DNA of 64,000 nt from Escherichia coli. Lineage in GTDB: Bacteria; Pseudomonadota; Gammaproteobacteria; Enterobacterales; Enterobacteriaceae. The translations under genes were made by a program, and so were the position numbers. The notes beneath the pieces are model-generated. The model made no database searches and was not told the DNA's origin. It saw only the letters and a program-made list of their open reading frames with translations. Below, in pieces: positions 3,138-12,508 of the stretch (positions within the stretch are counted from its first letter, which is position 1; the number at the start of each line of letters is the position of its first letter). Location: the NCBI RefSeq assembly GCF_044647545.1, contig NZ_CP172818.1. The stretch is one strand, 5' to 3'.

Positions 3138-4034
3138 TTACATTTTTACTTTGGCAGTCATCCCGGCACTGACACGGACCTGTTCCAGAATGGCGGACCA
3201 GTCCTGGCGACCGCGACCCGCTGCGCGCGCCTGGCTATAAACCTCCCGTGAGGCGGCCCCCAGCGGCATTGGCACATGCAGCTGGTTGGCGACATCAAGG
3301 GCGATACCAAGATCCTTATGGGCAAGATCGATCATGAAGGCGGGAGAAAGATCCCCGCTGAGGACTTTGTTTGGCCAGGAAGTGGTGAAGTGGCCTTTAC
3401 CGGCGGCGGTACCGCTCATCACCTTGACGGCAACATCGAAGGGAAGATTCAGGGCTTCGCACAAAACGGCGGCTTCTGCCGAAAGCGCATTGAGCGCGAT
3501 GCTCATGTAGTTGTTGATGAGCTTAACGCGGATCCCCATGCCCGGACCGCCCGCGTTGATCAACTCACTGCCCATCGCCATCAGGATCGGTGTGGCGCGT
3601 TCAACTTGTTCAGCGGTGCCGCCAGCCAGCAGTAACAGAGTACCGGTAATGGCATTTGCAGAAGTACGGCCTACCGGAACATCCATCATGCTGAAGCCTC
3701 TGGCCTGCATATCAGCAATCAATTTATCGGTTTGCAGTGGGTGGATGGTCGACATATCAATGACCAGCGCATCGGAAGATAAGCTCTCACAGACACCGTT
3801 TTCACCGAACAACACGTGACGCACCAGATCGCCATTCGGCAACATGGTAATGATAAATTCGGCACCTTTAGCGGCCTGCGCCGGGTTGGCGGCGGGAGTC
3901 GCACCTTTGTCTACCAGATGCCGCACAGCTTCGGCGTTCACATCAAAGACGCGAAGTTGATGCCCTTGCTGCAATAAATTGCTCGCCATTGGCGAACCCA
4001 TTTGCCCTAAACCGATAAACGCGATTGCTGCCAT
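3138..4034 (-). CDS. yihU: 3-sulfolactaldehyde reductase (NAD-binding, GxGxxG at N-terminus)
   Basis: 298 aa ORF starting [13 protein letters not shown] (Rossmann motif); synteny. Confidence 0.9.
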
Positions 4035-8901: not shown

Positions 8902-9750
8902 CGTTGGCAGGTGCATTGCACTCCTTGCCCCTGTCATGCGGTGATACAACGCTTCACCTTCATCGCAAAGTGGGTCGTATTCAGCGGTAATGATATGTAC
9001 AGGTGGCAAGCCATTGAAATCATCGCGCCAAAGAGGGCTGGCTTCAGGATGCCTGCGTTCAATGCCTGGCAGGTACATCTCAAAGCCGCTCAGTAAAGTG
9101 TCGCGTGTGATGATGTAATCGTGACGATTGCGTATGTAGCTTTCGAAATGCGCAGTCGCATCAAGCATGGGATAAATTAAGATGACCGAGTTGTGCCGGT
9201 TGCCACTCGCCAGCACGCTTTAATCGCAAAGCAGTTACCAGCGCCAGATGTCCGCCCGCACTGTCACCGGCAAGAGTTATCCGTTGTTTATCAACGCCGA
9301 GTCGTTCGGCGTGTTGCCGACTGAATTCTGCACCTCGTTGCGCATCATCATGGGCGGCGGGGAAAGTATGTCCGGTGCCAGCCGATACTGGACGGCAATA
9401 ACCCGACATTGCCCGTAATAGGCTAACTGGCGCAGCTGGTTGTCGTGAGTTGCGAACCCGCCGCTAACAAAACAGCCACCGTAGTAATAAATTATCGTCG
9501 GGAGTAATGTCGGGGCATTCAGCGGTGACACTATTCGTAAGGTCATCGCTTCAAGTTCGATAGTCTGAATATCTACCCGCGTTTCTGTCTCACCCGCAAG
9601 GACAGCGCTGGCGATATAGCCCTCCCTGCGCTGCGCAATACTTTGTTGACGCGATGAGGGGCGACCCGCAGCGATAAACTCTTCGACTAACTCTGCAATT
9701 CCTTTTTCAGTGCCATAGTAGAACTCATTTTGCTGTATGAATGTACAGTT
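8734..9750 (-). pseudogene. Alpha/beta-hydrolase (Aes/HSL-family esterase-lipase) remnant, frameshifted at ~9372 and ~9188, no start codon in the N-terminal frame, 3' end overlapping yiiD
   Basis: HGGG-region (IIYYYGGCFVSGG) in ORF 9277-9546, GDSAGG nucleophile motif in ORF 9161-9409, DPLCDEGE acid motif in ORF 8734-9216, each in a different frame on the minus strand. Confidence 0.6.
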
Positions 9751-9945
9751 TTATACACCCGTTTTTACTGGATGGATACAGGGAAATTCACGGGCGTGAA
9801 AAATCTGGAAAGCGCCTCGCAAATGTAAAGACAAACCCGGCAGAGATGTGGTTTTGCTGGAGCACTATCAGTAAGCTAGTGGTTTCAAGGGTACGTCAAT
9901 GACGTACAGAAGGGGTTTATTTATCTAAGCCAATGGCGTATAATT

Positions 9946-10256
9946 ATGCTCTTCATCGAAACGGAAATTTTTACTGAAGATGTTCAAAAACTGCTGACCG
10001 ACGATGAATTCAGTCGTTTTCAGTTTTTCCTGGCCTTGAATCCTGACTATGGTGAGGTAATACCTGAAACTGGTGGGTTAAGAAAGGTTCGATGGGTGTC
10101 AGGAGGAAGGGGAAACGTGCTGGTGTCAGGGTTATTTACTTTCATCAGGTTAAACATTATGAGATCAGATTACTGCTTATTTATCGTAAGGGTATTAAAG
10201 ATAATATCTCTCCCCAGGAAAAAGCAATGCTCCGGTTGTTAAATACGAGGTGGTAA
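9946..10256 (+). pseudogene. HigB/RelE-like type II toxin, inactivated by a 1-nt deletion in an A-run at ~10113-10116
   Basis: ORF 9946-10242 turns to nonsense after GGRG; shifting +1 at the A-run restores KRAGVRVIYFHQVKHYEIRLLLIYRKGIKDNISPQEKAMLRLLNTRW ending at TAA 10254-10256, 0 nt before the antitoxin ATG. Confidence 0.6.
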
Positions 10257-10547
10257 ATGGATAAGGCACTTTTTGAGCGGTTGACTCACAGCATGGCCCA
10301 GATGAATGAAATTATTGAAGGAACGCGACAGCCTTCGCGGACTTTTGAAGTTGATGCTATGAAAATCAAAGAAATACGCCGCGCTTCAGGGTTGTCACAA
10401 TCTAAATTTGCCGATCTTATTTCTGTAAGCGTAGACACGTTGCGTAACTGGGAGCAGGGGCGACGTTCGCCGACCGGGCCTGCAAAGGCTTTGCTGCGAG
10501 CGATTGCCAATGATCCGCAACATGTGCTGCAAGCACTTAACCGTTAG
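10257..10547 (+). CDS. XRE-family HTH antitoxin-like DNA-binding protein (HigA-like partner)
   Basis: 96 aa ORF; HTH region IRRASGLSQSKFADLISVSVDTLRNWEQGRRSP; immediately downstream of the toxin remnant. Confidence 0.65.
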   Translation: MDKALFERLTHSMAQMNEIIEGTRQPSRTFEVDAMKIKEIRRASGLSQSKFADLISVSVDTLRNWEQGRRSPTGPAKALLRAIANDPQHVLQALNR

Positions 10548-11150
10548 AGGCATGGTTATGCCATACAGAAAGCACCAGCATTCAGAACTCCTGTGAAAGC
10601 GGCGTAGTGCCACCTGCTCAGGAGTTTTGCTATGACCCGTAATCAGTGCTGACCGTTGCCACCCTATGATGCGATTAAAAAAACTCATCGTCGCGCCGAT
10701 GATTGACGTCAATGCTATCGGATGATACCGGGGGTGTTCCAGAAAGATCCAACTTTCCCGAACTGTTACCAACAAAATTATAACGATGAGCAAGTTAAGA
10801 CCGGTTGGTAGCAGTACTGACCGGTCTGTGATGGATGATTAATTTCACCTTAAATCCGGGTGCTGTTAGGATGCTGACATTTTTCGGCTACACCATTCAG
10901 ATTATGCAAATAAAGATCCAATCAAAAAATAAACATCCCTGTATATAATATATTTATAGCACCCATATCTCATCCTGGGCGATAACCCAACCATTTTTGA
11001 TTAACAAATGAAACAACTGCAACGTTCTTATTATTTCTGGAAAACGTCTCGCAAAAACAAAACAGCATGCAAAAATCCGCTTTTTTTAAATGATTTTTCG
11101 GCGTAATTTTCGCACATACATTAATGAGTAATATATGTAAGGTATTGGTA

Positions 11151-11369
11151 ATGGCGATGAATACGGTTTTTCTTCATTTATCAGAAGAGGCAATTAAACG
11201 GCTGAACAAGCTTAGGGGCTGGCGTAAGGTTTCACGATCTGCAATTTTACGCGAAGCGGTTGAGCAATATCTGGAGCGGCAGCAATTTCCGGTGCGTAAA
11301 GCAAAGGGTGGCAGGCAAAGGGGGGAGACAGTAGTTGTTGATGATCAGTGTAAGGAGCATAAGGAATGA
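11151..11369 (+). CDS. Small ribbon-helix-helix (CopG-like) protein, 72 aa, yiiE/yiiF family
   Basis: ORF track 11124-11369; trimmed to ATG 11151 to give 72 aa; N-terminal VFLHLSEEAIKRLNKL resembles RHH beta-strand/helix. Confidence 0.55.
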   Translation: MAMNTVFLHLSEEAIKRLNKLRGWRKVSRSAILREAVEQYLERQQFPVRKAKGGRQRGETVVVDDQCKEHKE

Positions 11370-11578
11370 CAAAAAATTTATTATTCTTGAATATAAAAAC
11401 CAGATGCCCTTATTCTGGTATTAATACAAGGCTGTTTTACTTGAACTTATAATAACTGCAACTGTTACATCATATCTGGAAAACGCCTCGCGAAATACGA
11501 GAGTTTGGAATAGCAGGTGTCGTCATACCCTATGAACTGTAATCCGGGCGACCAGCGCCACCCGGAAAACGTCAGAGA

Positions 11579-12508
11579 TTACTCCCCTTCACCCGGAAAC
11601 AGGAACGGGTTGATGGAACTACGGGCATAGCCTTCTTGCTCCATTCGCGCGTCCAGTACCAGAGAGGCGAGGTCATCTGCCACGGCTTCAACTTTCGGTT
11701 CTTTTTCCTGATAAAGAATCTTCAGGTAAGTGCCGCAGTCATCGCAGCTTTCGGCTTTAATCGCGGCCTGTTCGTCATCCAGCGACCAGTAATGCAGTTT
11801 GCCGCTTTGTTCACAGTTGCTGCATTTTACGCGTACTACGTGCCATTCAGTTTCACACAGGTTGCAGTGCAGGTAACGCAGCCCCTGAGTGGTGCCAATT
11901 TGCACCATGCTGGACACCGGCATAGAACCACAAACCGGGCAATATTGACGTTGTTCGCCATATTCCGCACGCGCTTTGCCGGGGATCAGATTGGCCATCT
12001 GCGCCCAGTAGAGCGACAGTGCAGCCCAGATAAACGGCGCTTTATCGCTGCTGACGGACGAGAAATCAGAGGCAAACAGTGCGCTGGCCATATCTTCCAG
12101 CTCCTGAGTCGATGCCTTCTCCAGATTCTCAATCACTGCCAGCGCCGGGCCGCTCATTTCAGGTTTCAGCTCAGCAATCAGCGCCATCAGCAGCTTTTGC
12201 CAGTGCTTATCACGCGGCAGAACGTGAATATCCAGCGGGGGCTTGCCTTGTGCGCTGGCTTCTTTAATGCGCGTGGTCAGATCCATCTCCAGCGGATGGT
12301 CGTACAGCACCACTTCCTGGGCGTGGGCGATAAGCGCAGCAAAGCGCAGGTAATCACCCAGCGGATTATTTTCTGCCAGCTCGCGCAGACGCTCGGCGCG
12401 GCGGTTGTATAAATTCTTGAGCCGAGGGAACAATAACGGCGGAATCATATCCGCCGTACGTTTCTCGCTCGAACCCAGCTCATCTTGCGGGATTATGCGA
12501 ATACTCAT
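11579..12508 (-). CDS. fdhE: Formate dehydrogenase accessory protein FdhE
   Basis: 309 aa ORF with paired CxxC motifs; synteny downstream of fdoI. Confidence 0.9.

Follow-up and report, generated by a model that had tools for sequence, protein, structure and literature searches.

What purpose would be served by a 21-bp motif that occurs three times within 1.7 kb of an Escherichia coli chromosome, and which protein would read it? The motif lies between fabY (yiiD) and fdhE in a 64,000-nt stretch of contig NZ_CP172818.1 (assembly GCF_044647545.1), hereafter called the window, where the gene order is dtd, fabY, an esterase gene (− strand), copy 1, a toxin gene, nadS, copy 2, yiiE, copy 3 and fdhE (− strand). 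We consider it probable (roughly 80%) that the three repeats are CRP-S sites, that is, the activator sites of Enterobacteriaceae whose action requires CRP together with Sxy (TfoX).

To count the copies we ran a degenerate 21-mer pattern, allowing up to three mismatches, over the 64-kb window and over 100 dinucleotide shuffles. The window contained exactly the three copies reported in an earlier note on this DNA, every one on the + strand, for a chance expectation of 0.01 copies, and none of the shuffles reached three. Their relations to the toxin remnant, to the ribbon-helix-helix (RHH) gene yiiE and to the fdhE stop codon stood as that note had described them, whereas the coordinate it had given for the third copy was one base off (11475-11495; Table 1). 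Copy 1 is located in a divergent region, with the esterase pseudogene leftward and the higB-like/nadS operon rightward, and ends 121 nt before the ATG of the frameshifted toxin gene (9946). Between the end of copy 2 and the yiiE ATG (11151) there are 94 nt, the centre of the copy being 105.5 nt upstream of that ATG, and K-12 has the same site. After copy 3, 83 nt remain to the fdhE stop codon (11579). As noticed before, the block AACTGCAAC(N0-1)GTT stands ahead of copies 2 and 3, at 11015-11023 and 11454-11462; together with the motif it forms a 45-nt repeat with 78% identity. The block was found neither before copy 1, which shares the 21-mer only, nor in any other motif context compared.

Match to the CRP-S consensus

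With its 5+6+5 layout, the core of the motif, TGGAA-N6-TCGCA, is built like a CRP site. According to PMC6728893, Sinha et al. 2009 gave the CRP-S motif of E. coli as 5'-TGCGA-N6-TTCCA-3', and the core is its exact reverse complement, with 10 of 10 bases matching in copies 1 and 2 and 9 of 10 in copy 3. CRP-S half-sites of Enterobacteriaceae carry C or G at position 6 and never T (Cameron and Redfield 2006, PMC1635313); the half-sites here, TGGAA and TGCGA, have G6 and C6. Given the core match and the bases at position 6, the motif therefore fits the description of an E. coli-type CRP-S site. In addition, the CRP-S motif is asymmetric and faces the promoter either way without preference (Sondberg et al. 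2019, PMC6728893), which agrees with the occurrence of our motif both ways round upstream of promoters. The families with Sxy are Enterobacteriaceae, Pasteurellaceae and Vibrionaceae, and among the contexts examined, the intergenic copies beside the gene sets described below come only from the first of them.

We then built a 22-nt weight matrix from motif copies only and scanned it over six pieces of the K-12 genome (179,760 positions). The first three ranks were taken by the promoters of sxy (21.8 bits), ybaV/comEA (19.2) and ppdD (17.0), followed by a fourth match at 15.1 bits that is presumably background. At these three promoters the TCGCA half is the one nearest the gene, likewise at yiiE, yiiF and higB, and the site centre lies 136-140 nt from the ATG, compared to 103-132 nt for the sites reported here.

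The sxy (tfoX) site (Jaskolska and Gerdes 2015; PMC6728893) has the same 16-bp architecture, with the conserved TGCGA half nearest the gene. It is identical to copy 1 at 17 of 19 bases, including most of the spacer and flank (CGGAAAGAGCCTCGCAAAT against TGGAAAGCGCCTCGCAAAT), and, as in the copy 1 region, it sits in a divergent region with a LexA box, that of sulA. It differs in having TTCCG where the motif has the consensus TTCCA, in lying farther from the gene (centre 136.5 nt from the ATG), and in that its function has been experimentally dissected, whereas that of the sites in the window is predicted from the sequence. The ppdD and ybaV/comEA sites (PMC1635313) share the conserved half and flank, GCCTCGCAAA(A/T), as well as the orientation and the upstream position, and ppdD combines weak CRP binding with a 90-fold Sxy induction (PMC1635313). 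Their distal halves are degenerate (TTCGT and CCTGA), in contrast to the perfect TGGAA of the motif, and they drive DNA-uptake genes while the motif copies adjoin toxin-antitoxin (TA)-type genes. With the palindromic CRP-S sites of the H. influenzae type (TGCGA-N6-TCGCA) the motif shares an identical TCGCA half and, by analogy, would share Sxy dependence and low CRP affinity; its other half, TGGAA, makes it asymmetric, as reported for E. coli and unlike that palindrome. In the sxy promoter, replacing the weak half by a second TGCGA gives Sxy independence (PMC6728893).

There are precedents for TA operons under CRP-S control: hicAB P1 of E. coli and toxTA of H. influenzae are type II TA operons with an upstream CRP-S promoter and a separate, antitoxin-repressed promoter near the genes (PMC6957337). 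The genes at hand belong to other TA families, in the window the toxin gene has already decayed to a pseudogene, and yiiE and its paralogue yiiF (see below) are solitary RHH genes. The upstream region of hicA also scores poorly with our matrix, so that its site would be another sub-type. If the CRP-S assignment holds, the link between TA genes and the competence regulon, so far made by hicAB and Haemophilus toxTA, would extend to several TA families and genera.

Some observations weigh against the assignment. The validated or reported CRP-S promoters of hofM, sbmC and hicA score poorly with the matrix, and the motif, with its perfect asymmetric core, would hence stand for a single sub-type of CRP-S site. 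The 20-mer is conserved at 19-20 of 20 bases across loci and genera, far more uniform than the validated competence-gene sites (14-17 of 20), and this conservation reaches beyond the ten core bases (T1, C2, A8, C10, C13, A19 and A20), which the CRP-S model alone does not explain. The distances from site centre to promoter, with promoters predicted by eye, are about −48.5 for relBE and about −104.5 for higBA, not the classical class-I positions; prediction by eye likewise places the esterase site at −70.5 and that of yfhM at about −61. Lastly, the sequences show the agreement with the CRP-S consensus and with validated sites, the conservation across genera and the course of the deletion, whereas binding and Sxy/CRP-dependent induction at these particular sites are what we infer from them. 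The extra uniformity may come from contacts between Sxy and DNA or from a recent spread of the small gene islets in which the motif is found; the uniform 20-mer offers a sharper CRP-S consensus, which could guide work on the question whether Sxy touches DNA and, if so, where.

A canonical, Sxy-independent CRP site, bound by cAMP-CRP alone and under ordinary catabolite control, is quite improbable in our view. The core does have the CRP architecture, each half-site retains its T, G and A, and the TCGCA half is also seen in classical CRP sites such as gal P1. Nevertheless, both half-sites lack T6/A17 (G6 and G17 in all copies), the left half lacks G7 too, the CRP-N pattern TGTGA-N6-TCACA is absent, and the closest validated relatives of the motif are Sxy-dependent sites. 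A T-to-C change at position 6 reportedly lowers CRP affinity about 80-fold and is diagnostic of Sxy dependence (PMC1635313, PMC6728893).

As CRP-S sites, the repeats would be bound weakly by CRP alone, since both half-sites lack T at position 6. By analogy with published CRP-S work, cAMP-CRP would act there only together with its co-activator Sxy, which would touch CRP at Q194/L196 and possibly also the DNA within the 16-bp site, and the bound complex would recruit RNA polymerase via CRP activation region 1, in a class-I-like manner and in either orientation. Copy 1 would then activate the higB-like/nadS operon and, probably, the divergent esterase promoter with its LexA box, the centre of the copy falling at about −70.5 from the predicted start there; yiiE would be the target of copy 2; and copy 3 would formerly have served yiiF, being now a promoter-less vestige with its last core base clipped. 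This would provide a concrete candidate regulator, cAMP-CRP with Sxy/TfoX, for the poorly characterised yiiE, yiiF, higB-nadS module and LexA-box esterase gene.

A link between yiiE or yiiF and Sxy was not found in the accessible literature, a search that did not extend to the K-12 list of Sxy-induced genes of Sinha et al. 2009, and a literal literature search for the motif sequence found no paper. What the literature holds on yiiE/yiiF is only a weak RpoS peak in SELEX (systematic evolution of ligands by exponential enrichment), plus SlyA/H-NS regulation of yiiE, and a Cappable-seq supplement contains no mapped start sites for these genes. The class of element, CRP-S, is a known one; the additions to it appear to be the specific sites, their spread among TA islets of several genera, an esterase promoter with LexA plus CRP-S, and the orphan copy.

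Genomic contexts and rival explanations

When the exact pattern was searched for in 100,044 species, each represented by one genome, 58 loci matched, and about 30 of these belong to Enterobacteriaceae. Those Enterobacteriaceae matches whose context was examined are intergenic, and several matches from other phyla, part of which were checked, fall inside long open reading frames (ORFs). In anchored alignments the 20-mer TCTGGAAA-RCRY-CTCGCAAA is near-perfectly conserved across Enterobacteriaceae: essentially no variation is seen at positions 1-8, 10 and 13-20, transitions occur at 9, 11 and 12, which all lie within the N6 spacer of the core, and the flanks carry no information. Near-exact copies number only two or three per E. 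coli chromosome, and in K-12 they occur only at yiiE and yiiF; the high genome-wide frequency that would have made the motif a generic repeat, a possibility raised in the earlier note, was not found. Copy 2 is not intact in all lineages: in NGF1 (B2-type) the copy upstream of yiiE (around 3160-3185 of the piece compared) has a degenerate distal half, TTTGGATGCCGTCTCGCAAAA. NGF1 also has extra ORFs between nadS and yiiE.

Between fabY and fdhE the order is fabY, esterase gene (−), 85-89 nt, motif, a variable cassette and fdhE; its place is taken by vapBC-like RHH and PIN genes in Franconibacter and Enterobacter and by higB-nadS in Citrobacter amalonaticus; other genera have RHH remnants there, or there is no cassette at all. 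A second context is nrdG, relE-relB (−), 63 nt, motif and cybC, shared by Klebsiella and 444 of 5426 E. coli genomes, and a third is ilvY, higA-higB (−), 106 nt, motif and ilvA, which two E. coli genomes have in common with E. whittamii, E. albertii and Salmonella Senftenberg. The motif is also found in the order infA, a 150-aa gene (−), motif, an optional higBA and clpA, and, in Kosakonia, Leclercia and other genera, in the order yfhM (−), 85 nt, motif and an alpha-glucoside phosphotransferase system (PTS) cassette. From motif to start codon there are 63-106 nt in one orientation (esterase, relB, higB and yfhM) and 93-121 nt in the other (yiiE, yiiF and higB). Empty nrdG-cybC and ilvY-ilvA sites do not have the motif, showing that it travels with the islets. 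A family of proteins of about 150 aa (C-terminal ...LLHDM...) is encoded some 300 nt away from the motif in two chromosomal contexts that differ from each other, at −747 to −307 in four loci and at +313 to +768 in two others, and NCBIfam and Pfam searches with it gave no match.

The motif is practically absent from plasmids and phages, the plasmid matches examined being mislabelled chromosomes or chromosomal fragments, with three matches in viral contigs. Salmonella Senftenberg 'plasmid 4' (NZ_LN868946.1), CP125156.1 and CP061233.1, for instance, hold core chromosomal genes (ilvC, ilvY, ilvA and ilvD; nrdDG) or are 1-5 Mb long, and these plasmid-labelled records appear to be chromosomal sequence. 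Short contigs filed as uncultured Clostridiales bacterium, Bacillus coahuilensis and Robinsoniella correspond almost base for base to the E. coli yiiF/fdhE region around the motif, and look like contamination of their assemblies.

From these contexts one can tentatively draw a broader picture, which we judge rather unlikely. A recurrent, selected CRP-S 20-mer would mark small chromosomal TA islets across Enterobacteriaceae (relBE at nrdG, higBA at ilvY, and higB-nadS, vapBC/yiiF and yiiE at fabY-fdhE) together with the LexA-box esterase gene, so that a sizeable number of accessory TA modules would come under the Sxy competence regulon; the invariant bases beyond the ten that CRP contacts would be where Sxy touches DNA, and the sites, being the sole conserved sequence common to the cassettes, would occasionally act as crossover points that reshuffle them.

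The last element of this picture could also be taken as the whole explanation, the motif being a recombination or cassette-junction site between fabY and fdhE, used by a site-specific enzyme or by short-homology crossover. Each cassette (higB-nadS, yiiE and yiiF) is indeed preceded by a copy, and in several comparisons, whether of genera or of alleles, the homology stops at the motif's 3' edge. In strain MJ-T (1502-1521 of the piece compared) we find a precise hybrid motif, flanked on the left as copy 1 is and on the right as copy 3 is, with higB-nadS and yiiE deleted, and the deletion of yiiF starts inside copy 3. Yet the MJ-T junction is unique among the 5426 genomes, the yiiF deletion uses only a 3-nt microhomology with a partner outside the motif, and the motif lies 75-115 nt inside the islet at the occupied nrdG-cybC and ilvY-ilvA sites, besides lacking at the empty ones. 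There is neither an inverted partner nor a target duplication, and the near absence from plasmids and phages does not suit such a site either. Because of the unique MJ-T junction and the lack of att-like features, recombination at the motif is best seen as an occasional by-product of a conserved repeat, which leaves the conservation itself unexplained, and a dedicated recombination site is quite improbable. Transposon ends, attC and att sites were likewise rejected as candidates, there being no partner repeat and no motif in empty sites.

In the earlier note the repeats were proposed to form a regulatory module, possibly the binding site of the local RHH (YiiE/YiiF) or helix-turn-helix (HTH; NadS) protein. 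The first part of this proposal fits our data, as the copies lie upstream of small genes and the upstream regions of yiiE and yiiF are duplicates over about 200 nt; the second part does not, and we regard an RHH/HTH operator as very improbable. The position of the motif upstream of genes for these DNA-binding proteins, its restriction to yiiE and yiiF in K-12 and a loose direct repeat within it (YYYGSAAA, with a 12-nt period) would agree with such an operator. However, the same 20-mer stands in either orientation beside relBE, two unrelated higBA types, vapBC-like genes, the esterase gene, yfhM/PTS and the 150-aa gene. It persists at a locus with no adjacent TA gene, and it matches the sxy, comEA and ppdD promoters, which have no such proteins nearby. 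A non-palindromic sequence found in both orientations beside four unrelated TA families and non-TA genes does not fit an antitoxin operator. The motif is also well upstream of the likely core promoters, where better-suited inverted repeats sit. One of these, ACATA-N15-TATGT beside the yiiE start, is conserved between the window, NGF1 and K-12, and by its sequence is a candidate operator of the RHH protein itself, more plausible as such than the motif. In other genera, vapB/yiiF-like genes have ATATAC-N5-GTATAT around a TGnTATACT extended −10, which are likewise candidate RHH operators.

A sigma-54 promoter (−24 TGG, −12 GC) is hardly credible: although the distance between TGG and GC is exactly that of TGGCAC-N5-TTGC, with the variable positions in the spacer, three strongly conserved positions are mismatched (TGGAAA not TGGCAC, TCGC not TTGC), sigma-54 chromatin immunoprecipitation sequencing in K-12 found no site at yiiE/yiiF and one in nearby fdoI (PMC4591121), and RpoN genomic SELEX lists no site at yiiE/yiiF. 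A scan of 9600-11700 for sigma-70 promoters and terminators found nothing at the motif, and an Rfam scan of 9500-11700 gave no match up to E=1. A small ORF or coding remnant was rejected too: the variable positions have a 3-nt period, but reading frames do not stay open across contexts. Comparison by eye gave no convincing match to a marbox, an Ada box, PurR/LacI-family half-sites, CpxR, TyrR, a MOBQ oriT or Tn21/Tn402 ends.

The orphan copy and the loss of yiiF

A putative activator site next to the fdhE stop codon needs an explanation, and the earlier note had offered one, namely that copy 3 marks a deleted paralogous gene, to be sought by comparison with genomes bearing two RHH paralogues at this locus. 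K-12 and LD26-1 are such genomes. In both, yiiE is followed by a second RHH gene, yiiF, 41% identical to YiiE, and the equivalent of copy 3 is intact, 93 nt upstream of yiiF. The paralogy between the upstream regions of yiiE and yiiF is best preserved in the 45-nt block. The window is without yiiF: alignment with LD26-1 and strain 500111 reveals about 600 bp missing, corresponding to the yiiF promoter, yiiF and repeats resembling repetitive extragenic palindromic (REP) elements. The deletion junction (Table 1) is inside copy 3, between motif positions 17 and 18, and clips the last core base, which is why this copy ends in ...TCGCG and not in ...TCGCA. Since yiiF follows the intact copy 3 in K-12 and LD26-1, and the junction is inside the motif, the idea of a deleted paralogue is correct. 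Copy 3 is thus a vestigial site, a regulatory element outliving its gene, and provides a clean example of this situation.

Junction BLAST with a short query separated alleles with and without yiiF, and the yiiF-less junction type was present in 676 of the 5426 E. coli genomes. Small tandem-repeat variation (GGAATA...GGAATA) distinguishes the yiiF-less alleles. The spacer between yiiF and fdhE in LD26-1 (3450-3760 of the piece compared) is packed with REP-like palindromic units, GCCGGATGCGG...CCTTATCCGGCCTAC, which were lost with yiiF in the window. In K-12, a Term-seq supplement (PMC7815308) lists a strong antisense RNA 3' end in yiiF (U00096.3 position 4079994, minus strand); if this end belongs to the fdoGHI-fdhE transcript, the transcript would cross the REP repeats into yiiF.

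The predicted esterase promoter and neighbouring genes

To the left of copy 1, a LexA-box-like palindrome lies 17-32 nt upstream of the esterase ATG, and in 9 genera its CTG-N10-CAG is kept at the same offset from the predicted CRP-S site (−71, and −70 in one of them). The orthologues of copy 1 in these genera have a fixed 55-nt gap to the LexA box, and the distance from the site to the esterase −10/LexA box is constant across them without conservation of the bases in between. With the TATAAA −10 and the LexA-like box at a fixed offset, the site centre falls near −70.5. The pairing suggests a joint control of the esterase gene by SOS and Sxy, as far as promoter layout can tell. The sulA-sxy intergenic region of K-12 presents the same pairing of LexA box and CRP-S site; its LexA box differs from that of the esterase gene at 1 of 16 bases.

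Table 1. Coordinates of the motif copies and of associated features in the window
Feature	Position	Strand	Description
Copy 1	9804..9824	+	TCTGGAAAGCGCCTCGCAAAT; one mismatch, the last base
Copy 1 core	9806-9821	+	TGGAA-AGCGCC-TCGCA; CRP-S consensus 10/10
Copy 2	11036..11056	+	TCTGGAAAACGTCTCGCAAAA
Copy 2 core	11038-11053	+	TGGAA-AACGTC-TCGCA; CRP-S consensus 10/10
Copy 3 (orphan)	11475..11495	+	TCTGGAAAACGCCTCGCGAAA
Copy 3 core	11477-11492	+	TGGAA-AACGCC-TCGCG; CRP-S consensus 9/10
AACTGCAAC..GTT block of copy 2	11015..11035	+	directly upstream of copy 2; paralogous counterpart of 11454-11474
AACTGCAAC..GTT block of copy 3	11454..11474	+	directly upstream of copy 3
Deletion junction	11492..11493		3-nt microhomology (CGC); from alignment with LD26-1 and strain 500111
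LexA-box-like palindrome	9733..9748	−	CTGTATGAATGTACAG; just downstream of the TATAAA −10 hexamer (complement of 9750-9755)
Inverted repeat ACATA-N15-TATGT	11114..11138	+	beside the yiiE start; read from sequence
Alpha/beta-hydrolase gene (hormone-sensitive-lipase/acetyl-esterase family), disrupted	8929..9716	−	broken ORFs; NCBIfam matches
RelE/HigB-like toxin gene, frameshifted	9946..10256	+	two reading frames
nadS, HTH (MqsA/Xre-like) antitoxin-type gene, intact	10257..10547	+	100% identical to WP_000356397
yiiE, RHH (CopG) gene, intact	11151..11369	+	94% identity
fdhE	11579..12508	−	conserved right-hand border of the variable region

The esterase remnant spans residues 4-262 of 302 by tblastn, with 75% identity, and an intact homologue of the RelE/HigB-like toxin has a weak Pfam RelE match. 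Among the 5426 complete E. coli genomes, the best match to the region is 98.7% identical. Gene decay is visible in a disrupted esterase gene and a frameshifted HigB-like toxin gene beside an intact antitoxin-type nadS, and such decay is typical of Shigella-like or host-restricted lineages.

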